Shown here: positions 7,113-58,998 of the stretch, piece by piece | Position numbering within the stretch: position 1 is the first letter of the stretch | How the letters are laid out: every line of letters begins with the position of its first letter | NCBI RefSeq assembly: GCF_036588685.1 | Contig: NW_026963340.1 | Span: 2,790,001-2,854,000 of the forward strand | Direction: 5' to 3' | Origin: Mytilus trossulus | Taxonomy: Eukaryota | Length of the DNA: 64,000 nt | The notes under the pieces: model-generated | Seen by the model: the letters and a program-made list of their open reading frames with translations, nothing else | What the model was told of the DNA's origin: nothing | Databases searched by the model: none | Made by a program: the position numbers and the translations under genes

Positions 7113-9456
7113 ATGTTGGTAATTCTCTTAATTGTATTTCTTGTTTCGAGTGTATGCGCACAGTGTTCTAAATATTCAGGACCTAGTGGAACTATAGAGT
7201 GTATACAACTATCTAGGTACAACAGCGAATACCAATGGGGAACTTGTTTGACAGATACATACATCAAAGCTAAATCTGGAGCAGAACACCAGTGCATAGA
7301 TCGAACTGCCACCTACTGCCATTACCAATGCATGCTCGAACTGTACGATGTTGGTTCTGGTCCAGTTGAAGGTTGTTGTAAATGTCAACAAGGACAGGAA
7401 TACACGTCAACAGATCTAACTCTTCCTTCGTCGTGTTATAGTCCTTCTGGAACAGACTGTGGGTGGTATGAAAATTGTCTTGAAAAGAAATACAAATGTA
7501 AAGGGACAGAAGATGACTATGCACTTGAATTTGCTACCAAATTTTGTAACCTCTACAATGAACATTTCAGTTCTTTCTCGTCTGGAGGACAGATATGGGT
7601 TAACTCTGTTCGCAAATGCCTACAAGTGTCTCTTGTTCCGATATTACGACCATGGTGTTCAAAGTCGTGCAAGGAAATTAAACAAATTGCCTTCGATTCG
7701 CATACCCCGTGTTATGTACGACCAAACAGACAAGATCTATCTATTTCCTTTTGCAATCTAAGCTTAAAAGATCGCGCAAGTGTATTTTGGACAATAAAAT
7801 CCAGTCTTGTAATGAAAGGAGCAGTTATTGAAACACTAAATGGAGTTATGATGACTATGAAAGAATGTACCGTACAATCATTAGACAGCTTACTAACTGA
7901 TGTCAACAGCTTGTTAACAGATGTTAAAGCCTTTACAATCGAAATTTTCACAAAAATACAAAGTTTATTACGTCGGCGTCGACGTGCGTTGTCCGATTTC
8001 ACAGATGCACTAACATTGGCAAATAGAATTGCAGATAGTATTGCTAATAAACTTCGTTGGAGTGAACAGGGAATTCTTTGGTTTTCGAGTGTCGATTCTA
8101 ACATTAGTTTGCCTTTGTCGAACGAACTACTTATGCTCGTACACCTTGCAGACAAGAAGACCTACGATTTGAATACAAATTATACCGAGTCTGCAGATAT
8201 CCATTTGATAGTTCGCGAATTTCAGAATAAACTTGAAAAAGGCGAATTGAAGGCAAATTTAGAGGATTATTTATTCCAACCTATCACTGCAAAAGGTTGT
8301 CTGGATGCCCAATGCAACATCACGCTATTTGACGTCAATGCCTCCTTGGACAGTAAGTACTTTCAAATTGTTATTTCATATTATATCATTAATAATGTAA
8401 ATCAAAATTGGTCGGAATAGTCTTGCTTTTCTACTACAATGTCACGATAGTATCGCCATTTTGAAAATCAGAGATAAACATCATTAGCAATTAATATTAC
8501 CTTTCCTTTTTACGGTATTATCATTATGTTTAACAGTAGTGCTGTATCATTCCCTTGTATCTGGATTTTTTGTCGAAAAAAATCGGCATTTTGAATATGA
8601 ACCGGAACAGCAGGTCATAACGTCATGAATATTTACAAGAATGAAGGAACGATTTTGTTTACTAAAATGGCTGAGAAATAATATAAATGGAACCTAAATT
8701 TTACAAATATTTGATATTTTGTTCTTCTCAACAAATGTTTTAAATGGTGTTCAAAGGAGTCATTTGTAAAATAAAACTAATGCAAAATTGACACGAATTT
8801 AAGATAATATAACAGTTTAAAAGAATCATAATACCCTAAACCTTGAATGACGCTACACAATTACAAAACTGATTAGTCAATCTGAATTAATGCAACTTAA
8901 TCAGGAGTAAAGTGACACTGTGGTAATTTTCTTTATAAGACAAACAATTGATAATCAGATTAGTATACGTTAACTAAGAAAAGATCAGTATGTGGTAGAA
9001 CATCCTGGTACTCGGTCAAGCAAGATCATTGTAAATAAGTAAATTCCAGATTTTAATACGTACAACTTTTAGGGAAAGTTAACTGTTTAAATCCTTTCTA
9101 TACATGACCAAGTCAACGGAAAATAATACGTTTTTCCCCAAATTGCACCGATTATACATTTGATTTTACTTTTTCTGTTTGCTCGTAATTGACAGAGTAC
9201 TATGTAGATAACCTGTTGAATAATTGTAGAACACAGAGTCAAAAGTCGGTACTATGAAAATAGTCTATTGTATGATGTATATATCTTACACCTCTCTTTA
9301 TTGGTATATGTTTGCACTGTACATTCTATAAGGATAGAACTTTAGTATGCGACAATCTTCAAATTTGATATTTAGGTTGAAATGTAGTGAATTATGGTAT
9401 AATGCAAATTTAAAACTCAATCCTTAACACTGTACTTTATTATTTCAGACTCTTAA
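7113..9456 (+). CDS. Cysteine-rich secreted protein with stanniocalcin-like domain and furin site (exon 1 7113-8352; exon 2 9449-9456)
   Basis: ATG 7113 starts a signal peptide MLVILLIVFLVSSVCA. Cys-rich N-terminal module, then the C..WY..CLE.K..C....Y...FA.KFC...W...VRKCLQ..L...C..I...AF.SH..CY...FC.L pattern recognised as stanniocalcin-like. RRRRR polybasic site. GTAAGT donor at 8353, tatttcAG acceptor at 9447-9448; spliced frame stops at TAA 9454-9456. Confidence 0.75.
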
Positions 9457-24691: not shown

Positions 24692-27600
24692 ATGGCCTCG
24701 TACGCTTCTTCCAGGGACGAAAACAATTCAGATTTTGAAGAGGTTGACAGCTTTGACTGCGATGATATGGAAGCACAAGCAACTGATGAAGGTAAATATT
24801 CAATCTGCTCAATATTTTATTATTCTTTGTGTGGATGCAAAAGATGTTTAGTGGCAGGACTCCGACACTCGACCCTGATGAGAAAGGTACTTTTTTTTAA
24901 GCATTGTGGCTGTGTGTGTACAAATGTACCAATGAGTTTTATACAAAAGTGACGTAAATTTACCAGTGTGATTCAAATTACAGAGAGATTATAGTGTCAA
25001 GTTGACACTTCTAAAGACTAAAGACTGTGTGCTGTTATAGTTTATGCTGTTGTTGTGCCGATATGGTACAAATAAGTAAAGTGTATGTGTAATAAACAGA
25101 ATACCTTTAATATCTGTAGATCGCTGTAATCTGATGAATATATAAGTCAGCAGACAGCAATAATATAATAATACATGTGTTCAATCTAGTAAGCGGAAGT
25201 AGAAGGGAAGTCTCCCTGTGACGTCACTCAGCTGCAGAGGGTAGCATGCAGTAGAATGTGGACTGGTTCTTCCTACACACACTAGCGGCACCACATCCGC
25301 CCCATTCTTGTAGAACCAGGCACATTCTCAAACTATAAAAGAAACTCAAATGCAAGATAAAATAAGGGTAATACAAAACATTAATAAAACTATACATATA
25401 TATATACACTTATGCAGTTATCAACACATCCTTGGTGATAACAAATATTTACATTACTAATTCAATAAACAATGTTAAGTTTCACGAGCTAACGGGGCCT
25501 AGGGCCCCAGCTAGCTGAATCTTGTCGCAGCTTTGGGATGCCATAGAATTTTAGGGCATTGTCATTTGTCGTCCAGTTTAGGATAGAAAGTGGGACGTTG
25601 CGTCTCTCACTAACAGCTACCGCCACTTCCCGTAAGTTCCATGGATGGTTGACAGCACAGCACGACCATGGCGTCAGAAATGGGGAGTCTGTCTCAAGGA
25701 CCAGCTGGTGTGGCAAGATTCTGGATATGGCATCTGTGTTGCAAGCATTGCTTGCATCTTTAATAAACTTGCCAGTGATGCCAAATACTACGCGAGGCAG
25801 GCTTTGCCACTGCCTCAACTCCTCCACATTCCCAGCAAAACAATGGCGATGGTAACATAGGTCAGGGAAATTTTCAGTTATCAATTTCAGCACACGGGCT
25901 GCTGCTTCTCCAGTGCCCTCATCACGGCAGTGTAATATGACAGGCAGTTTCATCCGTTGTGCCATCTCCAGCATCTGCATGAATGCCTGCTCCTGGCATT
26001 CCCTCATCCGCTGCCTGCACTGTTGTGGAGTTCTGCACCTCTTGCAGTCACAGCGTGTTGTGAAATCTAGGCCAATCTCACCAACAGCAACACATTTGTG
26101 ATTACCAAGCAGGAACTCTAGTTCTTCCAGCTGCTTTTGGGTGACCCCCTTTGCTGCAACATGTGGATGAATCCCAAATGAAACATATACAGCTTGGGCA
26201 GGTCCTACCTGTAGAGCCCAATCATTCCAATGGTCAGGGAACACATAATTGGCAATCCCATAGTAAAATGAGTTGTTGTGTTCCTTTGGAGATATTGCTG
26301 ACTTCATATGCAGGAAAGTCCTAAAATGAAGTCGTTTCAGAACCAAATCCAAGTGAAAATGGCTATCCACAAAAACGAACGGCTCTGGCAGTGGTGGCAC
26401 AATGTCCAATATGGGGCTGCCCTCGTATGTGAGAATCTCCACAGGTGACATCAGAGACTGCTGTTGCGCTGAGCCCACTCGTCGTAGTAAGCTTGCCATG
26501 ATCTCCCAATTTGTAAGGCTAATGACGTGATTTGGAGGGTTGGCGGTGATATGTACCAGACAGTCAGGACTATAGTTCTGTGCATAGTACACCAAGAGTT
26601 GCTGTTCCTGATCATTGAAACCGCTATTAACACCTTCATACAACTGTCTGTCAATGACGTACTGCAGTAGATCTTCGAGATTGGCACAACCGAACCAAGA
26701 TTTTATACGATGGAGGCAGCCGGTCACCAGTTGACACCATAGGTGAAGATGTTCCTCATCAAAGAAACATCCAAGTCTGTGCTCTTCTGTGTGCCGTAGC
26801 GCTAAGGAGGACGCCTGTACCTCTTGTCGACTACACTCCCAACAGGCAGTGGACCCAGACCAAAACCATGGCAGGTGTGTCTTCATCATGTGACGACGTG
26901 TCTTTTCCCTGGACATTATTCCACAGACAGGGCACTTCCGTAGTCTATTTTTGGAAGGCACTACTACTCTTCCTTCTGATTGGCTTTCATTTGTCTCACC
27001 TGATTCTCCCTCCTGACAAGGCTGACTAGAAAAACTCATCTGTGACATACCTGTCATGCTACTGTGTGCTTCAACAGGGCCTAGGGCCCCAGGAGAAGTA
27101 CCAGCACCTGCATCACTGTCATCAGGACCCACTTCATCAATTACCATCAAGTCCGCCACATCAAGATCTGTACAGTCGGACCGGGTATCATGCCACTCAC
27201 TGTGCGGACTAAGCGATAAAACATCTTGGTCTGAACGAGACCCTTCTTCCATTCTGGAACAAGAAGAAATGAAAACATATCATGAGTATTAAAAACATAC
27301 ATATATTTTAGAAATAATGTTATCAGCACTAATTGAAATATACAAGAGATATATACATATATACAGTCGTGAAGCTCCCACACAATACCTATTTTGTTTG
27401 GTACCGTGTTGGGCATCTGATTGGTCTACCGTATCTGGATGTTTGCACTGAGGACAGAGAGGCCGAGGGCCTCGTCTCGCCATCTGTGCCACTGACTCCA
27501 GTATCAACATTGTCCTCATTGGCATCGTTACCCAGACTTGAATTTTCCCCAAGGTCTAAATCGGGTCCCTGTTCCAGTTCTGATGTGATTGGGATATGGG

Positions 27601-30600
27601 CAAAGGAAGGGTCACCTAAAGACTGAAGTGCTGTATCATTGTCAAGCAATTGGGTATCCGATTCAAACATGCTTTGGACATTAAAGTCCACACCATAGGG
27701 AATGGTATCGTCAAGATTATCCCAGCTCTCATCGAAATCGCCTTCTTCCCTGAACATTGCATGTCTTAGTCTCTTGATCCAGGTGGGAATATCCCTATCA
27801 TTGCAACGCTTCAGTTTGTCATGATGTACCGTAGAATCTCGTTTACGTCCCCTGATAGTATACAATGGAGGTCTGCTTGATATGACCAGAAAAGGTCCAC
27901 ACCATGGCGATTTCAGCTTTCGACTCTGTCCGACTTTAGTGGTGGAGTCTGCCTTATAGACTAAATCACCGGGGTTGTATTTATGTTCGACTACTCTGAG
28001 GTCATAATCCCTCTTTTGCCGCAGCTGCGAAGCACGGAGATTATGTCTTGCAAATTCATGTGTTTTCTGCATCCGACTTACTAACTTTTGTACATAGGTG
28101 CTAGGAGTCATCTTGTTCTGGCCATATTGAGGTATTCCGAGGAGAAGTTGAATTGGTTGAATGGTCTCTCTCCCTAACATCATCTGATTCGGGGTAAATC
28201 CAGTTTGTCTATTGACCATCGAGTGCATTGCCATCGCCAGAAAGGGCAAATCTCTATCCCAGTGTCGACATTTTTTCTCGATAAAACACCTTATCATTGC
28301 TAAAACAATTGTGTTGTACCTTTCCACTTGCCCATTCGATGAAGGGTGATACGGGGTTGTCCTCGTTTTTGCAATTTCCAATGCCTCGCATAACGTCTTA
28401 AACAGATCACTGTCGAAATTCCGTCCTTGGTCTGTGTGGACCTCTAATGGACACCCAAACGTGACAATAAAATGTACAATAAACTTCTCAGCGACCATCT
28501 GGGCTGTTTGCGCAGGTAAAGACGCCATTTCGACCCATTTAGTAAACTGGTCCACCATCATTAGAACATAGTTGTTACCGCTCTTACTGGTGTTAAATGG
28601 TCCAAGTATGTCAATATGGACTCTCTCCATCGGATAGCCAGCATGGAACTGTCCCAGCGGAGCTCTTGGGTTAACATGAGCCTTTTTATTCTGGTTACAC
28701 ATGGCACAAGTACTAACATAGTCCTCACAATCCTTTCGCATATTGTACCACAAGAATGACTGTTTTAATTTTTCAAGTGTTTTTTTCTGACCCAAGTGTC
28801 CCGAAACTTTAGTGTCATGACAGTTTCGCAGCACCTCTTCTTTCAATGCTGTTGGCACAACTAAACAAAGTCCTTGGCGCTCTGGACAACCTATAAATTG
28901 GTAGTAGAGTACATCGTTAAACATAAGGAAACAAGGTCTACATAACCATAGAGATCTGGTAGCCTTTCCTCGCAAACGGAGTTCAGCTTGTGTAGGATCA
29001 GCATCTTGTTGCATCCAAGTCAATATTGGAGCTAAATCGGGATCTTCTTGCTGAAATATCTTTAACTGTTCCGGGGGGTACTCAGGTGCCCAATTACTAC
29101 ACGGATTTCCATCAGCATACGGTAAAGTGTCGTCTAGACTTGATGATGGGTGCGCTTCGCAATCCACTGCCAGAGCCGGGGGCTCTTGGTCAGGGGATTT
29201 GTCCTTTTCATTTTCAGGGACAACAGAAACAGTACGTACTGCTGCCATAAGAGACTTTGTTGCCAGTGGAATCACATCATCTACATCGTTACCAAACCTG
29301 CTCCATTGGTCATGAGCTCGCATGCAATATCGGCAGCCGTGGCATGGCAGTGTTGTAGGATCAAGTCCTGCCTGATAGCAATCACATTCAGTAACATCGT
29401 CTCGGATGCGGCTTAGGCCATCAGCGTTTAGATGTTTCTTTCCTGGTCGATGTATTATCTCCATATCAAAAGATGACAGCTCTTCTAGCCATCGTGCAAG
29501 CTGCCCTTCAATGTGCTTGAACCGCATCAACCATACTAAACTATTGTGATCCGTGCGGAGAATGAAGCGCCTACCAAGCAAATAATGGCGGAAATGCCGA
29601 CAAAATTTTACCACAGCTAATAACTCTTTCCTGGTGGTGCAGTAACGACGCTGAGGCTTCATCAGAACATGGCTGGCATAACATATAACCCGTTCTTTAC
29701 CATCTTGTATTTGCGATAACACCGCGCCTATAGTTGTATCGGACGCATCGGTGTCTAATATGAACTGGTCATTGGGATTAGGATACGTCAAGCAAGGTGC
29801 ACTTATTAACGCCGTTTTTGACTGTTGGAACGCCTTTTCGTGACACTGTTGCCATTCAGCTTCTCCTGTCTGGTGAGCAAGGTCGTATAGACATGCAGTC
29901 ATTTCTGCATAGTTGTGCAGGTGATCCCGGTGGTAATTGACAAACCCTAGGTATGACATGAGTTCTTTCTTTGACTTGGGAGTTGGCCACTTTTTCACTG
30001 CTTCTATCTTAGATGGAGAAACGGAGATGCCATTAGCACTCACCAGTTTTCCTAAAAACTCAACTTCAGGCTGAAACAGTTGACACTTCTTTGGTTTCAG
30101 CTTCAGGGTATACTGTCTAAATCTTTCAAATGCAGCCCTCAAATTAACGAGACCATCCTCGAAGTTGCGACCGAGAACCACGACATCATCAAGATAAACT
30201 AACACCTGTGTCCAAGTAAGTCCTCTCAAAACGAGTTGCATGGCCCGCTGAAATGTTGCTGGGGCGTTACAAAGGCCCATTCCCATTCTGGTGTGCTCGA
30301 ACAACCCATATCTTGTAATGAACGCCGTTTTCTTTCGGTCTTCTGGCTCAAGCTCAATCTGATAATAGCCACTGGCAAGATCCAATGTACAGAACGTGGT
30401 GGTGCCTTGGAGTGAGTCCAAGCAATCCTCAATAATAGGAATAGGGAAGCAATCTTTTATTGTTCTGTCATTTAAAGCTCTGTAGTCAATGCACCAGCGC
30501 ACGGTTCCATCTTTCTTTCTTACCAGCACTGGAGCTGAGGCCCATTCAGAAGATGATGGCTCAATGACACCTGCTTGTAACATCTTGTCAAGGTGCTGCT

Positions 30601-33600
30601 GTTCGAGATCTTGGAATCCAAGAGGTGTTCTTCGCATCCGGTGTTTAACTGGAGCGTGGTCTTTGGTATCTATTTTATGCCGGACAGCTGTAAGGCATCC
30701 GAGATCTAGGTCGTGCTGTGCAAATACATCCTGGTATTCGATTAATAACTTCTTGAGTTTTAACTTATCATCTTGACTAATTACATGCTTTGTAGAACGT
30801 TCATACAGATCTGTTAAATGGGATGGCAACGTAAACAATTCTTCTTGGCTTAAACCTGGTGCCGTGGGCACCTGGGTTTGTGTTTCTACGATGCCACGAC
30901 GGACATCTGGAGTTCGATTTTCACTTTCTTCCGAAGTCTCCTCCATTATACTGTCAATCTCTTCTAAATGACCTATCGGTGTTCCCTTTTTAATACGTAT
31001 GTAACGATTCCCATCATTCAAAATAGTTACAGGGCAAGATTTGCCTTTTCCGACAACATGCGAAACTAAAACTCCACTGGCAAGAGAGCATGGTTCCAAA
31101 ATAAACTCTTGTTCGGATCCTCTGTGTGTATCTATGCTGAAGATCATCGTTGAATTTGGCGGGACTGTAATTGTACGTTTAATGCAGACTTGTTGAGAAG
31201 CACTATCATCAGATCCAGTAACGAATGAGGCAGGTATAACTCTGTTGTTAACTGTAAGTGATGGAGTGCTGAGGTTGATGACTGCACCAAGCGTATCCAG
31301 AATATCTAGACCTAGAATGACATCATCTGTAAGTGGTGCCCTACACACGTCCCACCTTATTTCTAATCCATCTATATTCAGGAGTGTGTTCCTAATAATC
31401 TTGCCAATGACCAGTTGCTCGCCCAAACCACGTAGCGTCACTGTTTCGGAACATTCTATATTCTCCGGTATTAATTTCTCGTTGACGAGTGTAATCATAG
31501 CTGCTGTATCAACAATCATACTTGCATTTTGTTGAAATACTGTTCCCCGTACTGCCAAACTTTTTCCAATTGTACGTCTTATAACAATATCAGACGAAGC
31601 CGTGGGCCTCGGTTCTGATTTGTCGGGTGGTATTTTCCCTTGGCCATGTGATTTTAGAGTCGAGTGTTGGCCTACCGGCTCGACCCGTTGGCATTTAAAG
31701 ACTCAGTTGTTGGAGTAGAGTTTGGATAAGCTCTGTCGCCAGGTGAAGGGGACCGTTGTTTAAAGTAGCCTTGATTTCTAGAATTTGGTCGTGGTGATGG
31801 CGAACGTTGACGTTGAGGACTAAATGACCTCTGTTGGGGACTATATGACCTTTGTTGAGGACTATATGAACTTTGATTAGGAGGTGGTGTAGGTGATCGA
31901 TACGCATTGTACGTAGGTGGTGTATATCTTTCGGGAGACCTACCACGTGTATGTTGATCAGAAGAAAGCATCACCTCTGTCAATTTGGTCACAAGTTGAG
32001 TCAAGTTCCTTACTTCCTTTTCCAATGGACTATTAACAGTACTAGCACTTTCTGTGTCCTGTGATTTACCAGCGCTATCAGCAAATGAGACCTGTCTGTG
32101 GGCAAAATTTGGACTTCTAGATCCATAAATAGCCTTCTGATTCGCTATGGACGTTTTCATGATTTTCAACGCCTTATTGATGGACTCTGGGTTCCTTTCA
32201 ATCACGTGACGGGCAGCCTCTTTGTCCTTGCAACCTCTGAGGAATGCCTCTGTGCCAATTTGATCAATGACAGAATTGTCACATTTATCATACCCATCCA
32301 TTGCAACAAAATGGACCCGTTCAGCAAACTCCTCCAGTGTTTCACTGTCTTGCTGCCTCACATACTGCAACTGGCGTCTTGCTGATACAGGTTCGTCCTT
32401 TTTGCTGAAACGCTGTTTCAGTGCTTTCCTTAAAGTCTTATAGTCATCATCGATGTTGACCTTTCTTGCATATTCTAAAGCCACATCAGCTAGACAGTCC
32501 AATAGTCGGCAAACTTTCTTCCTATTTTCCCATTGTCTCCTTCCTGCTGTTCTTTCAAACTGATAGATAAAGGCTTCCCACGTAAGAAAACCTCTTCCTG
32601 TGAAAACTTGCATTTTAGGAAGCTGGGGACTTCTACTCCTGTCTCTCGCCCCAGAGTTTTCCTGCCACCTAGAGCACTCCCTATCAAGAGAGGAGTCTGA
32701 CGAAGAGCTGTGGCTTCTTTCCTTTTTCTTTTTAGTGCGTGATCTTGAAGACCTGCTAGTGTCAATTTGCATTGGTGACGGGCCTGTGGATGCTACTGTT
32801 GTCATCACAGGGGTCATAAACGCAGGCGGAGGCTGTTGTATCATTGATCCTATATGAGGGTACAGAGCTGGTCTACTCTGTACTAAGGACGCTGCATATG
32901 ATTCGCTACTTGTAGCTGGTGCAACGTGTAAAGGTGTACTAACATTGATACCCTGTGATACATATGGTGTACCAACATAGGACGGTGCAAAAGTAGCCGT
33001 TGCTGGAGTTGTGTTATGTTGGGGTTTGTATTCAGTGGATACTCCCTCTATGCCTTTGAATGGATGCTGTGTTACCATACCTGAGTTTGTCCCGTGCAGA
33101 GCCGAGGGCCCTGGCACGCTTCCCTTGTCACTCAGTAGTGGCAACGAACCTTGCATATGATAGATCTCCTGGTCACTACCAACACTTTCTGGCATGCCTT
33201 TGCCCTGAATCTGTTGAAACAACAATGTATTGTGCAGAGCCGGGGGCCCTAACACATTACCTTTGTCACTCGATACTGGAGTTGTACCTGCCTTAGATTC
33301 AGGCTGTGTAGTCTCGTCAATTGACATAATTGGCGAGAGACTAAATGCTGGAGGCTTATTTTGCAGTAATGGAGTACTGGCAATATATGGACTAGCTTCA
33401 GATTTCTGTTTAACAGGAGTATCCATAGAAGGGAGCTTGACTTCCTTATTTCTCTTGTTAATCAAATCGCTAACACTTGATGCCATCTGCTGAAATGAAC
33501 CTGGGTGTTCAAATGCACTCTTGAATTGCACGGTACTTGCCTCATCATTAGCAGCAGCCATTTTGTCTAGCCGCCTTCCCAAGGCATTAAACTTATCCGA

Positions 33601-36600
33601 TGTTAACTCTTCTAAACGTTTTCCGTTAGCATCAATCTTCTTGTCAATTCTCTGGTCTGACCGTTGCACTTGTTGGGATATTGCCACGATGTTTTCTGTA
33701 CTGATTTTTGTTGCTTCTTTTTGTTCAGATTGAATATTTAACAAACCATGGAAAATCTGTTCAATGCGATCCTCACTTTGTTTCACTCTGCTTTCAGTCT
33801 CAACAGCTCTTATTGCATTTGCTTTTCTATCCGCCTGAAACTCTTGGTATAGCTGTTCCAATGACATTTTGGTATTTTCAGCTGGTTCTGTCAAAGTAGT
33901 ATCAGCTATATTTTCTTTTGTGAATATGTCATCTTGTATCAACTCCTCTGTTTCAATGTTTTCCTTCAGTTCATTCTCATCCCCAATTCCTGCCATGTTG
34001 TCTTTATTTCAAATTACAATATTCTTAAATATTTCAAATTACAATATTATGCAACTCAAAACAATATTATAATTTGCACTGAGTAATTACTCAAGGCAAA
34101 TAAATCTCAAAATCACAACTTTTATGTGTGACTCAAGACATAAACAATGCAGCTTTTTTATAAAAGCTACTACTTTTACAATTTCAAAAATGCAGGCAAC
34201 AAAATAGGATAGAACTGGAACAGAGACTCAGTTGACACACTGTACTTTATTATACGGTGTATAATATGTTACTCATAAAATATTTATGAGTATATACCCT
34301 CTTTAATATAAAATATCAGTCTAAATTCAGTATAAAAATAATGTACGAAACTAAGTTACTGAAATCGAGACTGTTTCCGGTTTGCGTCTGCGCAATGGAG
34401 TATTGCAGACAAATGACTTCCGTGAAGAAGGACCTAATGGCGATAACCGGAAGTTCCTAACCTTATCTGATGAAAAATATCAAATATGAAGATTTCATAC
34501 GTGATAAACTGTAAAAATTTGATGCAATTTAATCTACTATCAATCTGTAGTAAATTTATGGTAATGCTTACGTAATAAATTTACAAAAAATGAAGCATCA
34601 AAAGTTTTCAAATCTGTAAAGGCGCCCTCGTGGAGTCCGCCTCACTTGCAGAAAATAATTCGTTCTTTGTCGTACGACGCCAATGTTGTGCCGATATGGT
34701 ACAAATAAGTAAAGTGTATGTGTAATAAACAGAATACCTTTAATATCTGTAGATCGCTGTAATCTGATGAATATATAAGTCAGCAGACAGCAATAATATA
34801 ATAATACATGTGTTCAATCTAGTAAGCGGAAGTAGAAGGGAAGTCTCCCTGTGACGTCACTCAGCTGCAGAGGGTAGCATGCAGTAGAATGTGGACTGGT
34901 TCTTCCTACACACACTAGCGGCACCACACTGTGACTTTTATCTCGCTATTGCATTGCATTTGGGAGGTCCTAAACCATCCGAACTCAGCGGCAATATCTG
35001 TGTTCTGTTTGGTTTTGGTTCTTGATTTTAGACGTTTCGGCCATAAATTTCGCGGTAAAGGCAAGAATATCCCAAGGATATATTTTGCTCCGGATAAAAA
35101 AAATAACAAAAACTACTGTGACATTTTTTCCTTCGGATCAAATTTCACCAGGATATAATTTTGCTTTACACCAACACCTGGTATAGTTACTCAAATGTTG
35201 CCAGCTGCCATTACACAGGTACGACAGTGGTTAAGCACAAAAACCATTTAGATAAAAATCACAAGATGAATGATTTGTTTTCATCCTTATCTGTGATTTA
35301 AAAAACAACTTTTATACTGATTTCTTAGTTGTTGTTTTTTATTTATATACATCAAAAACTACCTGAGGGTTACATTAAATATATGTTTATACAATGTAAA
35401 TATAAAAATAACTAAAAGAATGACACTGAAATTAACAAATATAGGCCTAGGTCATCTTTCAGCGTTCAACTTTTTTAAATGAAAACCAATCAAAACATTA
35501 TTAGAATACTATTATTTGAAAACTTTAACAGCAATTCTGCAATTAAGCTCAATATTTTTCCAACTGGTTATATATATTGTTTGTACAGATTTATAACGAT
35601 GTATCTTAAATTTAATTAATTTTTGAAGATATAAATTATAATTTTTGATAAAAAAAAACAATCATTAAATAAAAATTTTAAAAAATATTCTCCCCATACG
35701 GCATACCTTAACTCGGACATTTTTGTCAGAAGGAAAGAAATGAGTAAAAATATAATTAGGTCGTGAATTGACAATGTACATGTACATGTAGGTGTTGATG
35801 AGACCAGGTCCTAAACATGCTAAATTGACCAGGTTCCGATTTTGACTTGTACTGGATAATTTGTTTTTTATAGAACGATCACGTCTATCAATTGACCTGA
35901 GCTTTGCAGGTTACACCAGGGAATTTAATAGCTCAAATATCAGTTTATTATTCAAACCCCATTGGGATCAGTCAAACCATCAAATTACTTGTTATCACCT
36001 TCTAGAACCTTGCATGAAGAGTCTTCCAAAACAGGGGCCTATTAAATGGGTCATCTTGGACAAGAAATTCAATTATTTGCTCTCAATTGAATCATTTACA
36101 GCTTTAATTTCCAAACATAATTTAAACACTCTTCATTCCAGGTTATGTACAAATGTAAAAATGAAAACATGAAATTGAAATTTGAGTTTATTTTCAGCAA
36201 ATATTTCACAATTATGAATTCGAAATTTTGAATATATTTGAAGGAAACTTGTATGTATTAAAAAGAAAACGCTCAATATTAAAATTCAACTGAAAACTTT
36301 GTATGCATAAATTTTATGACCTTTTCTTCCTCAATGCATATATCTGTCACATTTCCAGAGGTTGACAGGTACATAATTAGTCATATAATAAAGTTGGTTT
36401 GCCTTCAGATATTAGTTCTCTCTCGAAATAACATTAAAAGGCAGATTCAGACTGTTACCTTATACTTACATTCTAGCATCAATTGGCATTATGTGGGTCT
36501 CAAAATGTAAGAAAAAAAAAGCCAGTATCAATTTTGATATGACCTTTTTAAGGGCATTTGAAGCCTTCCATGTAAAGAAAAGTAGGTGAAATGGGACAAC

Positions 36601-42600: not shown

Positions 42601-45600
42601 AATATGATATGTAAAATGTTTGGTGTAAAATTAGGAGTATTGTGTATCTTAGAATGGTTAAATGAGAGCAGATGTAAATTTATATGTCAGTATGTATAAG
42701 GGGATTACAGTTTAAAGTGGTACCTCACACTACAGGGAGATAACTCTGTAAAAATCACCTAAGTGTTCTTTTGTTAAGGAAATATAAACTTCTTTGTTTG
42801 TCAAACTGCTATATACCCAATGAAATATTTCTTTCAAAGTCTATATTTTTTTTTTAAATTTTATGCATTTGACCAAGTGTCAAAAGTTAATATTTTGTCA
42901 AATTTTTATCAAAATTTCTTGTTTAGTATGAAGAAAATATGTTGTGTCTGTAAAGAACACTTGAGGTTTTTAGAATGTTATTTAATTTACTTGATTGTCT
43001 TGATTTTTTATTTCAGTTAGAAGTAGTTGAAAGAGAATATATAAAGGAGAAAAAAGCTACAGCTAAAGATTTTGAGGTAGATTATTTTAAAACTTTTTTA
43101 CAAACTGTAAATACCAAGAAATACACTCAAAATACACTGGTATAGGCCAATTAAGAATAAATGAAGACATAGGGTATAATTTAATTAGACAGTAACCTAC
43201 TGGCAAAAAATTACCAAGAAAAATTGAGACAGAAAATACAATAATAACTGCATCTAGTTTTTCAAATATGTGGCCTTTGGAAAATCAATTTATGAAATCT
43301 GCATTTGACAATTTATCAAAACATTTATTATGTTATAAATAACAATTTTGGGGTCTGTTGAAAGAGCAGTTAATTTTAAATCAACAGTCTTATCAATTTA
43401 TCTTTTATATAGAAGTTGAGTGACCTAGTTTATGATTTGATTGTGAATACTCTATTTTAAGTCTGCATTCATTTCAATTTTCCATGTCCAAGTAAATCAT
43501 TTCATGGTATGTGAAAGACACCCGTATCAATTTTTGTTTTTCTACATTTCAGGAAAAGAAGATTGACTTGAAAGAAAGTTTGATACTTGAATATGAAGAC
43601 AAATCAAAGCTGATAGAAAGTGAAAGACACTCATTGGATCTCACAGGAAGTAGTATGTTTAAAATCTACAGTGAAAACTGGATTTACTGAAGATTATCTT
43701 TACATAAAACTGTTTAAATCTACAGTGAAAACTTTGTTTTACTGAAGATTATTTTTACTTAAAACTGTTAAAATCTACAGTGAAAACTTTGTTTTACTGA
43801 AGATTGATTGATTGTTGGTTGTTTTACTGCAGATTATGTTTACATAAAACTGTCAAAATCTACAGTGAAAACTTTGTTTTACTGAAGATTATGTTTGCAT
43901 AAAACTGTTAAAATCTACAGTGAAAACTCAGTTATACTGAAGATTATGTTTGCATAAAACTGTTCAAATCTACAGTGAAAACTCAGTTATACTGAAGATT
44001 ATGTTTGCATAAAACTGTTAAAATCTACAGTGAAAACTCAGTTAACTGAAGATTATGTTTGCATAAAACTGTTAAAATCTACAGTGAAAACTCAGTTATA
44101 CTGAAGATTATGTTTGCATAAAACTGTTAAAATCTACAGTGAAAACTCAGTTATACTGAAGATTATGTTTGCATATGACTGTTAAAATCTATAGTGAAAA
44201 CTCAGTTATACTGAAGATTATGTTTGCATAAAACTGTTAAAATCTACAGTGAAAACTCAGTTATACTGAAGATTATGTTTGCATAAAACTGTTAAAATCT
44301 ACAGTGAAAACTCAGTTATACTGAAGATTATGTTTGCATATGACTGTTAAAATCTATAGTGAAAACTCAGTTATACTGAAGGTTATGTTTGCATAAAACT
44401 GTTAAAATCTACAGTGAAAACTTTGTTTTACTGAAGATTATGTTTGCATAAAACTGTTAAAATCTACAGTGAAAACTCAGTTTTATTGAAGATTATAAAA
44501 CATTAAACTGTTAATACATGTTAAATTACTTAAAAGTTTTCACTGTTTGTTCTGATCAAAGAGCTTTGATATATATTCAGGCTTTGGTCAAAGCAGGCTC
44601 CTTTGTACTGTGTAGTGTGAACTTTTTTTTAACTTGTGCATCTTAATTTTCTTTGGTCAAAAATACAATGCTTTATAAAAGATTTTTGCATCTACTGTTG
44701 AAGAACATGATATTTTCATACATTTTCAACAGATTTATACTCAATTTGTAAGCAACTTACAGTTTTATGCTGAGCTTTTTAAAAATAAGTCTTTACAAAA
44801 TTTATTAGATTTATACCTTCAGAATGACATTTCATACATGTTATAATAAGCATAAATAATTGTATATTCAATACACATAAAAAATGAAAGCTTTTTGAAA
44901 GGAAAAGGGGGAGGGCTGTTAATTAAGTAAAGCAAGCTTTAGAGGTGCTACACAAGTTGCTGTCTCTTGCCATCAGGCAAGTGGTTTGAGAATTTTATTT
45001 CAAGTCCTGTTGTTTAATTGAATATTTTTTTTCCATTTCAGATTTTATGTTATCTGATACTTTAGAAACCAAAGCACCATCAACCCGTAGACTGAGGAGA
45101 CGACCTAATGACCCCATGCCACTACCTGAGAAAAGACGGAAAGCCTCACCAGATATCCTTTTAGTTCTAAAATCATGTGCTAGAAATCTGATTCTTATAT
45201 ATTTGAAATACTGTAATTGGGAATTGCTATATATATACACAATCCTTTATATTTCAAAACATTAATTCATACCTGCCAACTTTTAAAGTGCCCATGGGGG
45301 TTTTAGTGTGCGACAACAATTTCAAAGGTTACAATACTTTGCGACGACTATTTTGCTCGTGCTGTTTTGTGGTCTAGAAAAATTGTCATATTTGTGAGAT
45401 GAGCTTACATGCCTTTTTCTTAAGTTTATTTGCATGATTCTAGTTATAATATATCAGTAGAAAAGATGAACATGTGGCTGCAAGACCAGGAATTAATTTC
45501 ATGTGTAAGGATATGAAATAATTGTTGACTTTTCCAATTTAAAATTATGCACAAAGAAGGACCTTTGTCAGGTTGGGAACAACACCTAGGGGTAACCCCT

Positions 45601-49428: not shown

Positions 49429-50850
49429 CCTAGTTTTATATAGAACTGTAGAATCTCATTGTAATCATAATCATTTCATACTAAATTCATATCAATTATT
49501 TCACTCTTTTGTTTTTCCATCAGCAGCGATAGATGGATGTATACTTAAATTTCACTAAAGTGTACTTAAAATTTGAGAATGGAAATGGGGAATGTGTCAA
49601 AGAGACAACAACCCGACCAAAGAAAAAAACAACAGCAGAAGGTCACCAACAGGTCTTCAATGTAGCTAAAAATTCTCGCACCCAGAGGCATCCTTCAACT
49701 GGCCCCTAAACAAATATATACTAGTTCAGTGATAATGAACGCCATACTAATTTCCAAATTGTGCATTTATCATAAAATTGCTTAAGCAATGAACAAAAGT
49801 TTAAGTTTAAAAAGAAGTTAAAGATACCAAAGTGACATTCGAGTCCAAAACAGTCTAACACGTTGTCATGGCAAAAAAAGAAAAGAATGTCATGAAACTT
49901 ATAATCAATACTCATTGCAAGAATACACTGATCAAGTTTGAATTTTGGTGGCGTCTCTTTAACTGTTCTAATTTTTATCTACTGAAAATTCAGAAATTAT
50001 TGCGAGGTTTTTATTATTGCCAATAATGCGACTGAGTTGTATTAAAACGCAATAATTAAAACTCGCATTTTGTAATATTTTAATTGAATTAAGCATGACT
50101 TTTCTCAAAATCGTAATAATTAAAATCGCATTCAAGTGTAAAATGACAAAAAAAATTGCTTAAAAACATGTATATAGAAAACTAAATTTTAAGCAACCCA
50201 ATCTGTGTTAAAAATTGTGATATCAGTTGGTCTCTAAAAGTAATCTGATTCAGCCTGACTAGTGCACCAGCAAATAAAAGTAGTAGATACTTTATATCTA
50301 TGTAAGATGCCTGTCTCACACAGATCATAAAATAAATCCACCAATAAAAACTAGCCGCTACAGAATAGCCCAAAAGTGGTGCTTATAAGTGGCGTTAAAA
50401 CATAAAATTTTAAAAAAAATACAAAAATCAATGATTATTGAATGTTACCGCCATAAAAAAGGACAAAATAAGATTTAGAAGGAAATGGGGAATGTGTCAA
50501 AGAGTCAACCACCCGACCATAGAACAACAGCCAAAGGCCAGCAATTGGATTGATACATCTTTCCTTAATTTAAGAATACCATGGAGATATCATACTCAAT
50601 AATGATTTAGGTACCTGTATTTTACTTGATTTGTACTTGAAATTTAAGTGCTACAGATTTTTTGTTGCATGGTTACATTTTCAGCATTTTGGATGTTTGT
50701 CTTTTTCAAATCTCATAAAGTTATGAGGTTCAAACATGGCATCCTGTGATCATTGTTGGTATCATTTTTGCACCAATATTTTAAGTACAAATCTAGGAAC
50801 TGGAAAATACAAGTACCTAAATATTACAATAATTTCTAAAGTAAAGTGTC

Positions 50851-53800
50851 GCTCATATCAAATTAGTTGTTAACCCAAACAAGTGCAAAGTTGACGGGCA
50901 TTAAGAATACAAAATTCCAAAAAGTTGTGCTAAAAAAACCAGCTAAGGTAGCCTAATCCTGGGACAAGAAAATCCTTATTTTTTCGAAAAAAATCAAAGT
51001 TTTGTAAACAGGAAATTTATAAAAATGACCTCATAATTGATATTCATGTCAACGCCGAAGTGCTGACTACTTGGCTGGTGATACCCTCGGAGACAAAACG
51101 TGCACCAGCAGTGGCATCGACCCAGTGGTGTAAATAGTTATCAAAAATACCAGGATTATAATTTAGTGCCCTAGACGCCCGTTTCGTTTACATAACACTC
51201 ATCAGTGACGCTCATATCAAAATAGTTATAAAGCCAAACAAGTACAAAGTTGGAGAGCATTGGGGATCCAAAATTCAAAAAATTGGTGCAAAATACGGCT
51301 AACTTACAGGTGATCTATTCCTGGGACAAGAAAATCCTTAGTTTTTCCGAAAAAAATCCAAGTTTTTTAAACAGGAAACTTATAAAAATGACCGCATAAT
51401 TGACATTCATGTCAACACTGGAGGGCTGACTACTTGGCTGGTGATACCCATGGGGACGAAACGTGCACCAGCAGTGGCAACGACCCAGTGGTGTAAATAG
51501 TTATCAAAAATACCAGGACTATAATTTTGTATGCCAGACGCGCATTTCGTCTACATAAGACTCATCATTGACTCTCATATCAAAATAGTTATAAAGCCAA
51601 ACAAGTTCAAAGTTGAAGAGCATTGAGGATCCAAAATTCCAAAAAGTTGTGCAAAATACGGCTCTGGTAATCTATTCCTTTGACAAGAAAATCCTTATTT
51701 GTTCCGAAAAATTTCAAGTTTTGTTAACAGCAAACTTATAAAAATGACCGCATAATTGACATCCATGTCAATACTGAAGTGCTGACTAATGGGCTGGTGA
51801 TAGGAGACGAAACGTCAACCAGCAGTGGCAACAACCCAGTGGTGTAAGTAGTTATCAAAGGTTCCAGGATTATAATTTAGTACGCCAGACGCACGTTTCG
51901 GCTACATAAGACTCATCAGTGACGCTCATATCAAAATAGTTATCAAGCCAAACAAGAACAAAGTTGAACAGCACTGAGGATAAAAAATTCAAAAAAGATG
52001 TGCGAAATACGGCTAAGGTATTCTATTTTTTGGACAAGGAAATCCTTATTTTTCCTGAAAAATTTAAAGTGTTGTTAACAGGAAACTTATATAAATGACC
52101 GCATAGTTGACATTCATGTCAATACTGAAGTGTTGACTACTGGGCAGGTGATACCCTTGGGGACGAAACGGCCACCAGCAGTGGCATCGAACCAGTGGTG
52201 TAAGTAGTTATAAAAAACAGAATTATAGTTTTTTACGCTAGACGCGCGTTTCGTCTACATAAGACTCATTATTGACTCTTTTATCAAAATAGTTAAAAAG
52301 CCAAACAAGTACAAAGTTGAAGAGCACTGAGGATCAAAACTCAAAAAAAGTTGTGCAAAATACGGCTAAGGTAATCTATTCTTGGGATAAGAATATCCTT
52401 AGTTTTTCTGAAAAATTCAAAGTTTTGTAAACAGGAAACTTATAAAAATGACCGCATAATTGACATTCATGTCAATACTAATCATGAAGTGCTGACTACC
52501 GGGCTGGTGATAGGAGACGAAATGACCACCAGCAGTGGCAACAACCCAGTGGTGTAAGTAGTTATCAAAGGTTCCAGGATTATAATTTAGTACGCCAGAC
52601 GCGTGTTTCGTCTACATGAGACTCATCACTGACGCTCATATCAAATAGTTATAATGCCTAACAAGTACAAAGTTGAAGAGCATTGAGGATCCAAAATCCA
52701 AAAAAGTTGTGCAAAATACGACTCAGGTAATCTTTTCCTGGGACAAGAAAATCCTTATTTTTTCCGAAAAATTCAAAGTTTTGTTAACAGGAAACTTATA
52801 AAAATGACCGCATACTAGTAATTGACATTCGAAGTGTTGACTACTTTGCCGGTGATACCCTCGAGGACGAAACGTGCACCAGCAGTGGCATCGCCCCAGT
52901 GGTGTAAATAGTTATCAAAAATACTAGGACTATAATTTAGTACGCCAGAAGCGCATTTCGTTTACATAAGACTCATCATTGACTCTCATATCAAAAAAGT
53001 TATAAAGCCAAACAAGAACAAAGTTGAAGAGCACTGAGGATCAAAAATTTAAAAAAGTTGTGCAAAATACGGCTATGGTATTCTATTTTTTGGACAAGGA
53101 AATCCTTATTTTTCCTGAAAAATTTAAAGTTTTGTTAACAGGAAACTTATATAAATGACCGCATAATTGACATTCATGTCAATACTGAAGTGTTGACTAT
53201 TGGGATGGTGATACTCTTGGGGACGAAACGGCCACCAGCAGTGGCATCGAACCAGTGGTGTAAGTAGTAATAAAAAAACAGAATTATAGTTTTGTACGCT
53301 AGACGCGTGTTTCGTCTACATGAGACTCATCACTGACGCTCATATCAAATAGTTATAAAGCCAAACAAGAACAAAGCTGAAGAGCACTGAGGATCAAAAA
53401 TTTAAAAAAGTTGTGCAAAATACGGCTAGGGTATTCTATTTTTTGGACAAGGAAATCCTTATTTTTCCTGAAAATTTTAAAGTTTTGTTAACAGGAAACT
53501 TATATAAATGACCGCATAATTGACATTCATGTCAATACTGAAGTGTTGACTATTGGGATGGTGATACCCTTGGGGACGAAACGGCCACCAGCAGTGGCAT
53601 CGAACCAGTGGTGTAAGTAGTAATAAAAAAACAGAATTATAGTTTTGTACGCTAGACGCGTGTTTCGTCTACATGAGACTCGATCATCATTGACGCTCAT
53701 ATCAAATAGTTATAATGCCAAACAAGTACAAAGTTGAAGAGCATTTAGGATCCAATATCCAAAAAAGTTGTGAAAAATACGACTCAGGTAATCTTTTCCT

Positions 53801-54465
53801 GGGACAAGAAAATCCTTATTTTTTCCGAAAACTTCAAAGTTAACAGGAAACTTATAAAAATGACCGCATACTAGTAATTGACATTCGAAGTGTTGACTAC
53901 TTTGCCGGTGATACCCTCGAGGACGAAACGTGCACCAGCAGTGGCATCGACCCAGTGGTGAAAAATAGTTATCAAAAATACTAGGACTATAATTTAGTAC
54001 GCCAGACGCGCGTTTCGTCTACACCAGACTCATCATTGACGCTCATATCAAAATAGTTATAAAGCCAATTAAACAAGTACAAAGTTGAAGAGCATTGAGG
54101 AACCAAAACTCCAAAAAGTTGTGCCGAATACGCTAAGGTAATCCATGCCTTGGGTAAGAAAATTGTTTGTTTTTCGAAAAATTCAAAGTTTTGAAAACAG
54201 GAAATTTATAAAAATGACCACATTATTGATATTGGAGTCAACACCGAAATGTTGATACCCTCGGGGACGAAACGTCCACCAGCAGTGACATCGACCCAGA
54301 GGTGTAAATAGTTATCAAAGGTACCAGGTTTATAATTAAGTACGCAAGACGCGTGTTTTGTCTTCATAAGACTCATCAGTGATGCTCATATCAAAATATT
54401 TATAAAGCCAAACAAGTACAAAGTTGAAGAGCATTGAGGGTCCAAAAACTCCAAAAAAATTGTGC
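50851..54465 (-). repeat. Tandem array of ~350-360-bp units (~10 copies), each with a type I hammerhead motif (non-LTR retrozyme-like)
   Basis: Units start at about 50851, 51210, 51573, 51924, 52277, 52634, 52983, 53338, 53695, 54041, 54384; minus-strand consensus cgtcaCTGATGAgtcttatgtagacGAAAcgcgcGTCtggcg. Confidence 0.88.
51883..51924 (-). ncRNA. Type I minimal hammerhead ribozyme (best-preserved copy)
   Basis: Stem I CGUCA/UGGCG, CUGAUGA box, short stem II (one mismatch in this copy), GAAA box, near-palindromic stem III, GUC cleavage triplet. Confidence 0.75.
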
Positions 54466-54561
54466 ATGCACTTATAAACAATACAATAGAATATTACAAG
54501 CTAATAGTTAAGAAAGATACCAGGCTTATCTTTTAATAAACGCTACAAAGAGAGACTTATT

Positions 54562-55728
54562 GACTTTTCTACTCTTTACACAAGTATTCCATATTCCAAA
54601 CTAAAAGATAAATAGAAAGGTTTGGTATTGCTTTGCTTCATAAAAAAAATGGCCAACGTAGATGCAAGTATCTTGTCTTAGGGAGAGATAAATCCTACTT
54701 TGTTAAGGATCACTCTGATTCAAACAAAACATTCTCTGAAACTGATATTATCAAGATGCTTGCTTTCTTGATTGACAACATATTTGTTACTTTCAGAGGA
54801 CGTGTTTTTCAACAGACTGTCGACATTCCAATGGGAACAAACTGTGCCCCTCTACTTGCCGACTTGTTTCTATATTATTATGAGGCTGACTTCATACAGG
54901 AACTTCTTAGGAAGAAAGATAAGAAGATAGTGCTCAATATCCTTTAACTCTACTTTCCGCTATAGAGATGATGTTCTTTCACTAAATAATTCAAAATTTG
55001 GTGACTATGCGGAACGCATATATCCCATAAAACTAGAGATAAAGGATACTACATATACAGTAAGGTCGGCCTCATATCTTGACTTACATCTAGAAATTGA
55101 CAATGAGGGTCGGTTGAAAACAAAACTTTTTGACAAAAGAGATGATTTCAACTTTCTATTTCTAAGAAGCAACATTCCAGTAGCACCTGCATACGGGGTA
55201 TATATCTCCCAATTGATACGATATTCCCGTGCTTGCATTTCCTATCATGATTTTCTTGAAGAGGGTTGCTGCTCACAAGGAATCTATTAAACCAAGAGTT
55301 CCAATGGTGAAGTTGAAATCATCCCTTCGTAAATTTTACGGACGCCATCACGAGTTGGTTGACCGGTCGTTATGGAATAACCGTTTCACAAATGATATCG
55401 TATATGTTCCTTATACGTCGTAACTACAATCCCCTTCCCTTTCATGAATGTGACCTACCGAATTAGACTATCTACCAGATTTGTTATCACATAAGCAACA
55501 CGATGGGTGCCACATGTGGAGCAGGATCTGCTTACCCTTCCGGAGCACCTGAGATCACCCCTAGTTTTTTGGTGGGTTTCGTGTTGTTTATTCTTTACTT
55601 TTCTATGTTGTGTCATGTGTTCTATTGTTTGTCTGTTTGTCTTTTTTTTAATTTTTAGCCATGGCTTTGTCAGTTTAATTTAGATTTATGAGTTTGACTG
55701 TCCCTTTGGTATCTTTCGTCCCTCTTTT
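54562..55728 (+). mobile_element. Degenerate, 5'-truncated Penelope-like retroelement (RT relic plus 3' tail)
   Basis: DFSTLYTSIP, IPMGTNCAPLLADLFLYYYE, FRYRDDVL, SYLDL, KRDDFNF, NIPVAPAYGVYISQLIRY across stops and frameshifts. Confidence 0.8.
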
Positions 55729-58160: not shown

Positions 58161-58401
58161 ACATGGAGTCTTTAACACTTGGAATGGTATCTTTAACAAA
58201 ATAATATGACAAGCAACAAAACACAGATCGGCCTTTAATACCCTTATACCCGGAAAAAAACCCTGACATATACGATACGACCCCCCCCCCCCTTTATACA
58301 ATATGATACTACACGAAGCATACACTGAAAGTAAAAAATAACAAAATAAACAAAGAGAGATGAAAGGTTTACAAGTAGCTTTAAAACAATGTGTAACTCG
58401 T

Positions 58402-58798
58402 CATTTTCTACATAACTTGAAAAAAAACCGTACTAAGTCAGAAATATGTAAAAAAAAATATACATTCGTTTGAAGAGTTTGAGCGTTTGATTTTTGCCAT
58501 CATTTTCTACATAACTTGAAAAATGCCCGTACTAAGTCAGAAATATGAAGAAAAAAAATATACATTCGTTTGAAGAGTTTGAGCGTTTGATTTTTGCCAT
58601 CATTTTCTACATAACTTGAAAAATGCCCGTACTAAGTCAGAAATATGAAGAAAAAAATATACATTCGTTTGAAGAGTTTGAGCGTTTGATTTTTGCCATC
58701 ATTTTCTACATAACTTGAAAAATGCCCGTACTAAGTCAGAAATATGAAGAAAAAAATATACATTCGTTTGAAGAGTTTGAGCGTTTGATTTTTGCCAT
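58402..58798. repeat. ~99-bp tandem repeat x4 derived from a dispersed repeat
   Basis: Unit cattttctacataacttgaaaaatgcccgtactaagtcag...gatttttgccat at 58402, 58501, 58601, 58700. Confidence 0.9.
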
Positions 58799-58998
58799 TT
58801 CATTAGGGACTCTCCGTTTTGGACTTTCCTCAGGGTTCATTCTTTTTTTTTATTTTGCTATTTATACATGTATATATGATATATATATTTTTCATTTCTG
58901 CGCAGCCTGTGTTGGATGCTGATAAGCCTGATTGCTGTCGAGATCATTGAATTTTCGGTCACCTTCCTTACTGGGCATTCTTTCCTCTACGATTGTAT

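Follow-up and report, generated by a model that had tools for sequence, protein, structure and literature searches.

An LTR splice donor is joined to the TatD nuclease gene of a mussel Ty3/gypsy retrotransposon

Anatomy of the element

The window, a 64,000-nucleotide stretch of the Mytilus trossulus genome (assembly GCF_036588685.1, contig NW_026963340.1, positions 2,790,001 to 2,854,000), contains a Ty3/gypsy element of 9,878 bp on the minus strand (34928-25051). Flanked on both sides by the 4-bp target-site duplication ACAG (34929-34932 and 25047-25050), and with identical LTRs, TG..CA ends and the gag/pol order of its kind, it is a young Ty3/gypsy LTR retrotransposon (Table 1). Behind gag comes a pol open frame whose Pfam domains run in the order reverse transcriptase (RT), RNase H and integrase, and a spacer separates pol from a third frame, ORF3. 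The TGG-starting motif at the expected place of the primer-binding site is conserved in related LTRs. Within the 30-nt overlap of gag and pol, TTTAAAT (31693-31699, minus strand) is by its position a candidate -1 frameshift site.

Six copies of the element in the genome carry ORF3 at 99-100% identity. A search of the genome with ORF3 gave 77 matches, many of them more distant TatD-bearing loci. Two matches of equal score diverge from one another (G000:C11:5641321-5642691, minus; C11:5647651-5649021, plus) and lie only 5 kb apart, too close for two full elements. Two short elements of ~4 kb with related LTRs (L113, G000:C4:20220769-20224913; L114, G000:C13:62756084-62760084) have gag and a short next frame, with no long pol or ORF3 frame.

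Table 1. Features of the element, in window positions and in the element's reading direction.
Feature	Position	Strand	Remarks
5' LTR	34684..34928	-	245 bp, TG..CA, 100% identical to 3' LTR
ATTAAA hexamer	34739..34744	-	one base before donor; candidate poly(A) signal
Splice donor in use, AAG/GTATTC	34732..34740	-	exon end 34738, GT 34737-34736; X1, X2
Primer-binding-site position (putative, from position)	34666..34683	-	TGG one base past LTR
Three leader donor candidates	34456..34645	-	34645-40, 34571-66, 34461-56
gag	31672..33996	-	774 aa; Pfam Retrotrans_gag
pol open frame	27389..31702	-	1437 aa; Pfam RVT_1, RT_RNaseH, Integrase_H2C2, rve
Intron of ORF3 RNA	27254..34737	-	7,484 nt: LTR 3' part, primer-binding site, leader, gag, pol, spacer
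pol-ORF3 spacer	27253..27388	-	136 bp, 72.8% AT, five ATGs
Polypyrimidine tract and CAG acceptor	27254..27277	-	first exon base 27253
ORF3	25489..27252	-	587 aa
CxxC..H..H and helical domain	26449..26946	-	ORF3 residues about 103-268
TatD nuclease domain	25540..26370	-	residues 295-571; DxHxH, GExGLD, HxR, HCF, ExDxP
Two more acceptors	25332..25346	-	first exon bases 25344 (X1), 25332 (X1, X2); same LTR donor
Purine-rich tract before 3' LTR	about 25296-25310	-	
3' LTR	25051..25295	-	245 bp; second donor copy, exon end 25105

ORF3 encodes a TatD-domain protein

ORF3 is built of a disordered acidic N-terminus, a zinc-finger-like and helical domain, and a TatD domain. The last matches the full Pfam profile PF01026 (TatD_DNase) at E 1.4e-42, with 146 bits against a cut-off of 27. 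A predicted model of ORF3 (mean pLDDT 79, first 100 residues disordered) has solved TatD structures as its best matches. Cellular TatDs (T. maritima TM0667, 1j6o; E. coli TatD/YcfH; human TATDN1/3) match the same full profile. The predicted fold superposes on the 1j6o chain with a TM-score of 0.84, with the metal-binding motifs kept, and identity to solved TatDs is about 18-26%. ORF3 departs from the cellular proteins in lying in a retrotransposon and in having a cysteine-rich insert and, at its N-terminus, a zinc-finger-like and helical domain. Residues H298, E392, H441, H470 and E520 are invariant in 23 homologs. In a scan with motif patterns, 12 of 13 families have all six TatD motifs, and the family-B copy scanned has five.

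Between families A and B the synonymous sites of ORF3 are saturated (pS 0.81) at a pN of 0.16-0.17 (three B copies); on this codon comparison ORF3 is under purifying selection. In the TatD tree all five starred clades are compatible with the RT tree, while shallower, unstarred forks differ. The initial annotation of this DNA had proposed that the TatD gene belongs to the element's expression programme and is not passive cargo. Purifying selection (~17% non-synonymous), kept catalytic motifs and an ORF3 tree that follows the RT tree together support the view that it is not. From its kept motifs, ORF3 is likely an active metal-dependent nuclease, made separately from Gag-Pol and acting in trans. 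As to its role, we would tentatively put first that it clears RNA:DNA hybrids or single-stranded DNA arising while the element replicates; almost as likely, it may counter host nucleic-acid defence; that it does something other than either is somewhat less likely.

The closest named protein among the matches listed is from Mytilus trossulus (99%), and other named matches listed come from M. coruscus, M. edulis, Saccostrea and Crassostrea. Three public M. coruscus gene models called 'tatD' (P0003, P0039, P0046) fuse integrase-region sequence to ORF3. Because the P0003 fusion meets the ORF3 start methionine, these models look like mis-annotated retrotransposon copies. Scans of metagenome and viral contigs gave 80 and 8 loci, matched in the TatD domain only and at 26-34% identity; ESM Atlas gave no usable match. 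With regard to an origin of ORF3 from host TATDN2, no named TATDN2 stands in the best 120 of 570 matches.

A splice acceptor abuts the ORF3 start codon

A polypyrimidine tract with CAG one nucleotide before the ORF3 ATG, inside an AT-rich 136-bp spacer, had been the starting point of the initial annotation, and both parts of that description are confirmed. The element reads ...ttttcatttcttcttgttccag/A ATG (slash at the cut), with CAG at 27256-27254, A at 27253 and the ATG from 27252, and base composition from the end of the pol stop at 27389 to this ATG is as given in Table 1. Pyrimidines fill 17 of the 20 tract bases before the acceptor. On a generic score with approximate frequencies, this site ranks second among the element's 711 AGs. 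When the spacer was put through 5000 dinucleotide shuffles, 6 yielded an equal site at most 25 nt from the ORF3 ATG. An unspliced RNA has 165 ATGs upstream of ORF3. A donor-like AG/GTATTG at the pol stop (27388) was rejected, as no joint uses it and family B does not keep it.

Splice joints in public transcript-like contigs

We mapped four of 22 listed public runs (X1, X2, X4 and X8, from four studies) on 25296-34928. All four consist of contigs only and their RNA status is guessed, 16 of the 22 listed runs being guessed RNA; joints in such contigs carry neither strand nor RNA start, and rare forms are dropped. A contig of X1 joins 34738 to 27253, skipping 7,484 nt, with CT..AC on the plus strand and hence GT..AG on the strand of the element. 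This LTR-to-ORF3 joint was seen in one of the four runs, in one contig of depth 13.6 with 29 letters on its short (LTR) side. That side falls below the 31-letter bar for bridging and sits at the limit of an assembly from 31-letter words, and the side lengths fit such an assembly (28 letters if exons share their first 2 letters, 27 if they share 3).

An RNA with gag-pol spliced out, as proposed by analogy with env, is supported by this LTR exon joined exactly to 27253 with GT..AG ends. The junction had been expected to run from the 5' leader to 27253. Its acceptor is used as expected; its donor lies in the LTR (34738/34737) and not in the leader. The three leader motifs put forward as donors (GTGAGG, GTAAGC and GTTAGG) are all present, and no joint in the four runs starts from any of them; contigs drop rare forms, so the missing joints are no proof of absence and allow minor use. 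The leader motif at 34571-66 has two changes in X4 and X8.

Two further joints run from the LTR donor to acceptors 25332 and 25344, 37 and 49 nt before the 3' LTR, again with CT..AC on the plus strand; they make a short RNA without a coding part. Three acceptors use one donor, with GT..AG throughout and an overlap of only 2 letters. In X2 the 25332 joint and re-entry into the LTR stand at equal depth, 28.1. X4 and X8 represent a diverged relative with almost no ORF3 cover at the 88% setting, and under these conditions neither shows a splice joint; one X8 contig passes unspliced through the ORF3 acceptor. Among other holes in the contigs, 27254-27480 in X1 and 27254-27489 in X2 are without cover.

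A conserved donor inside the LTR

The donor in use precedes the primer-binding-site position and lies within the LTR, 54 nt from its end. A generic donor matrix gives it -0.1, below all three leader candidates (4.7, 1.1, 3.2). Among 30 related LTRs fetched, with identity down to 76%, AAG/GTATTC is present in 29. ATTAAA is likewise found in 29 of the 30; it is the sole such hexamer and stands just upstream of the donor. As a clade-wide poly(A) signal ATTAAA was rejected, the LTRs of 11 distant TatD families being without it.

Scored against shuffles (P<0.1), the best LTR donor beats chance in 3 of 13 TatD families, 1 of 9 families with another ORF3 and 0 of 3 without ORF3, the last control being only 3 elements. 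A strong donor in the 3' part of the LTR of all families was rejected by this scoring. Since distant LTR donors are not above chance and the donor in use scores weakly, the LTR donor is shown only for the family of the window element.

Both splice sites are also joined to host exons

Two X2 contigs connect the same element bases with foreign sequence. In the first, the element match stops exactly at 27253 and 28 foreign letters follow, which map once and without mismatch to G000:C1:21492065-92 and end at a host GTGAGT donor. The second leaves the element at 34738 with at least 255 foreign letters; the letters beyond 34738 map once and exactly at C1:21493967-96 and begin after a host acceptor. 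The partner exons are separated by a host intron of 1,874 nt (G000:C1:21492093-21493966), in which this assembly has no similarity to the element, and downstream exons of the locus (G000:C1:21492065-21493996; L155-L158) encode ankyrin repeats. The simplest reading suggests a polymorphic sense insertion of the element in this intron in the X2 animal. The joints fall on host exon borders. They show X2 to contain spliced RNA, with the two element sites cut exactly where they are in X1 although the partners are foreign. The ORF3 acceptor is real and in use.

The DNA control is the genome assembly rather than the animals behind the runs. LTR matches of at least 97% identity number 12 (of 38 matches), and all 12 fall in six full-length pairs, 9,606-9,633 bp apart. 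The region 27000-27420 has 14 matches, 11 of them taking in the spacer and 3 being pieces from within ORF3. None of the 14 starts at the acceptor, and the assembly yielded no intron-less DNA copy (counts are lower bounds).

The acceptor is conserved across families

The sample, drawn entirely from this genome, had one copy per family, with 13 TatD families and 10 whose ORF3 is of another kind. For each we took the best-scoring AG from the pol stop to 45 nt into ORF3 and compared it with 500 shuffles. This AG is followed within 25 nt by the in-frame ORF3 ATG in 10 of 13 TatD families (2.9 expected) and 9 of 10 other-ORF3 families (3.7 expected), and within 2 nt in 6 of 13 (1.3 expected) and 7 of 10 (2.2 expected). 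Applied before gag, the same test gave 4 of 23 within 25 nt and 0 of 23 within 2 nt (an inner gag ATG in B and J2). Acceptor conservation in related families, which the initial annotation had named as a check on its proposal, is borne out at 19 of 23 within 25 nt, compared with 4 of 23 before gag. The four families that fail are D, F, R and S6. C, S2, S4 and S9 add little, since their shuffles almost always pass at the 25-nt setting, and because the families are kin, the P values from shuffling make them look more independent than they are. The arrangement tract-YAG-N-ATG is kept between families A and B despite saturated synonymous sites in ORF3.

In the RT tree all TatD families fall, together with S1-S3, into a single well-supported clade of 16. 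In S1-S3, ORF3 has the same N-terminal domain (hhalign probability 95.3, E 2e-8) and the acceptor is kept, but TatD is lacking, so the expression slot is broader than TatD cargo.

Most sister gypsy families sampled have a third ORF (L116, L122, L124 and L126 in S1-S3; L132-L150 in S4-S10). ORF3 gives C2H2 zinc-finger matches in S4, S6 and S7, and no Pfam match in S10 and others. In family R (L120:3592-5235) a TatD ORF3 lies in frame right behind a single pol stop, with no nearby acceptor before its first ATG; the family may use another expression route, or the copy may carry a deletion. Families A and B (window 34928-25051 against L061 and L009) are 97-100% identical from the leader to about 30000 and 71-86% identical past it, in the rest of pol, ORF3 and the LTR; by this pattern they look recombinant.

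A two-RNA model and its rivals

We propose that the 5' LTR gives rise to at least two RNAs. The unspliced one would be the genome and the message for gag and gag-pol. In the other, a short LTR exon ending at donor 34738 would be joined to acceptor 27253, with 7,484 nt taken out; this RNA would be linear and capped, its first exon being at least 29 nt long and starting in the 5' LTR. Because the ORF3 ATG follows one base past the joint, ordinary scanning could make a separate protein and would avoid the 165 upstream ATGs. As the primer-binding-site position is inside the intron, the spliced RNA lacks a primer-binding site; it would presumably not be copied back into DNA and would serve as message only. 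We hold this model, with a linear LTR-to-ORF3 message from the 5' LTR and separate translation of ORF3, to be highly probable. Its solid parts are the joint and its GT..AG ends, the use of both sites with host partners, the conservation of the acceptor and the selection on ORF3; the linear form of the RNA, its start in the 5' LTR and its translation we infer.

The main rival, which we consider improbable, is back-splicing, in which the donor of the 3' LTR (25105) would be joined to the upstream acceptor 27253 and yield a 2,149-nt ORF3 circle, or to 25332 and yield a circle of 228 nt. Since the LTRs are identical, the 5' LTR donor is indistinguishable from that of the 3' LTR, and the joint sequence is the same either way. 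The equal depth in X2 of the 25332 joint and the return to the LTR is consistent with a loop in the assembly graph, but a linear RNA with an LTR at both ends gives the same loop. The X2 joint from the LTR donor to a downstream host exon may likewise derive from the 3' LTR. Against circles, the documented errantivirus route is forward splicing, and an ATG 0-2 nt past the acceptor in 13 of 23 families would fit scanning from a short capped leader.

Less probable still is that the sites are real but ORF3 RNA arises mainly by accident, when host transcription runs into intronic insertions and the element is trapped as an exon. In X2 the sole joint listed at 27253 indeed comes from a host exon and not from the LTR, but the X1 joint is LTR-to-ORF3. 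Moreover, the acceptor-ATG layout is kept over ~40-50% RT difference and is absent before gag, which random read-through would not maintain.

A third account, to which we give only a slim chance, is that ORF3 is expressed mainly without splicing, either from an internal promoter close to where pol ends or because ribosomes re-initiate past the pol stop, the tract being merely part of an AT-rich spacer. The AT-rich spacer does have TATA-like runs, an X8 path crosses the acceptor unspliced, and in family R just one stop codon divides pol from an ORF3 in the same frame; set against this are exact 27253 joints from two different donors in two studies, the five ATGs within the spacer, and the shuffle and gag controls. 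That the joint reflects a deletion in the DNA of some unsequenced copy, or template switching during library preparation, would be helped by the runs' lack of an RNA record and by genome counts that are lower bounds, and we give it next to no weight in the face of three acceptors with one donor, GT..AG ends, only 2-letter overlap, X2 joints exactly on host exon borders and the absence of any such DNA form among the copies found.

Relation to known systems

The envelope gene of retroviruses is expressed from a spliced RNA from which gag and pol have been removed. In errantiviruses the third ORF is described as expressed from a spliced RNA without gag-pol (bioRxiv 10.1101/2023.08.03.551782; for Springer, PMC13097621). 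Drosophila errantiviruses (gypsy/gypsy clade: ZAM, Beagle, springer, idefix) are, as described there, Ty3/gypsy elements like the one in the mussel, with a spliced third ORF after pol, and their intronic insertions splice an element donor to host exons, as X2 does here. They differ in what the third ORF encodes, an envelope protein in errantiviruses and a nuclease in the mussel element, and in how it starts. The mussel ORF3 keeps its whole ATG after the acceptor, whereas errantivirus env is reported to be joined to an upstream peptide, a Gag peptide or part of a start codon. Having no envelope, with ORF3 identified as TatD by Pfam, PDB sequence and fold, the mussel element is not an errantivirus.

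The donors differ as well. An errantivirus- or orthoretrovirus-type donor lies downstream of the 5' LTR, by 43 nt in Springer according to PMC13097621; that of the mussel element was seen inside the LTR, 54 nt from its end. The errantivirus splice maps in the supplements of bioRxiv 10.1101/2023.08.03.551782 may include LTR-internal donors. In foamy viruses (Spumaretrovirinae) the major splice donor is placed in R (PMC3694450). On that description, foamy viruses and the mussel element both carry their donor within the LTR, hence at each end of the element, and ahead of the primer-binding site. In foamy viruses the donor precedes the poly(A) signal, and U1 bound to it suppresses 5' polyadenylation. 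The candidate ATTAAA of the mussel element, one base upstream of the donor and not conserved distantly, reverses the order described for foamy viruses, and the mussel element has no env. With its donor in the LTR, its layout is nearer to foamy viruses than to orthoretroviral or Springer env.

The bdelloid rotifer elements Juno and Vesta have an ORF3 that encodes a DEDDy exonuclease or a GDSL esterase, and the main text of the same report states that such ORF3s are typically expressed from spliced messages (PMC5408684). As described there, they share with the mussel element a non-envelope enzyme as ORF3, nucleases included, with catalytic residues intact; the nuclease folds are unrelated, that of the mussel element being a TatD barrel. 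We found no mapped ORF3 splice sites in the main text of PMC5408684, where the word 'donor' is absent. Human TATDN2, another cellular TatD nuclease, is reported to degrade the RNA strand of R-loops (PMC10711561). In the literature outside subscription journals, Repbase and supplements, we found no description of a gypsy element with TatD, and 'TatD' is absent from the main text of PMC5408684, PMC13524379 and PMC6238403.

Implications

With these results an animal retrotransposon whose third gene does not encode an envelope has a mapped splice joint for that gene, where there had been a guess from sequence. They also recast the mussel TatD that public annotations call 'tatD' as a maintained, separately expressed retrotransposon gene. 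A donor inside the LTR is unusual, and in identical LTRs it offers a testable case of control by splicing versus polyadenylation. It also explains how insertions of the window element's family rewire host transcripts. For annotation, an acceptor 0-25 nt before an ATG is a rule that finds accessory genes in mollusc gypsy elements.

A wider reading, speculative and taken as a whole rather unlikely, is that a large clade of mollusc gypsy elements has a splice-defined accessory slot, served by the LTR donor and the pre-ORF3 acceptor, whose cargo has changed over time. The slot would hold a TatD fusion, the N-terminal domain without TatD, or C2H2 zinc-finger proteins. In the family of the window element, the donor that touches ATTAAA would set genomic RNA against nuclease mRNA, short non-coding RNA and polyadenylation, foamy-virus-like control would have been reached independently by a retrotransposon, and TatD would be a counter-defence nuclease encoded by the retrotransposon.

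Other features of the window

Outside the element, the window has a 435-aa cysteine-rich ORF at 7113-8420 on the plus strand, with a hydrophobic start and no Pfam match. Tandem arrays have units of ~55 bp (43626-44593), ~353 bp (50847-54565) and ~99 bp (58401-58855), and blocks at 11.2-12.9 kb and 39.6-40.1 kb are duplicates of one another.
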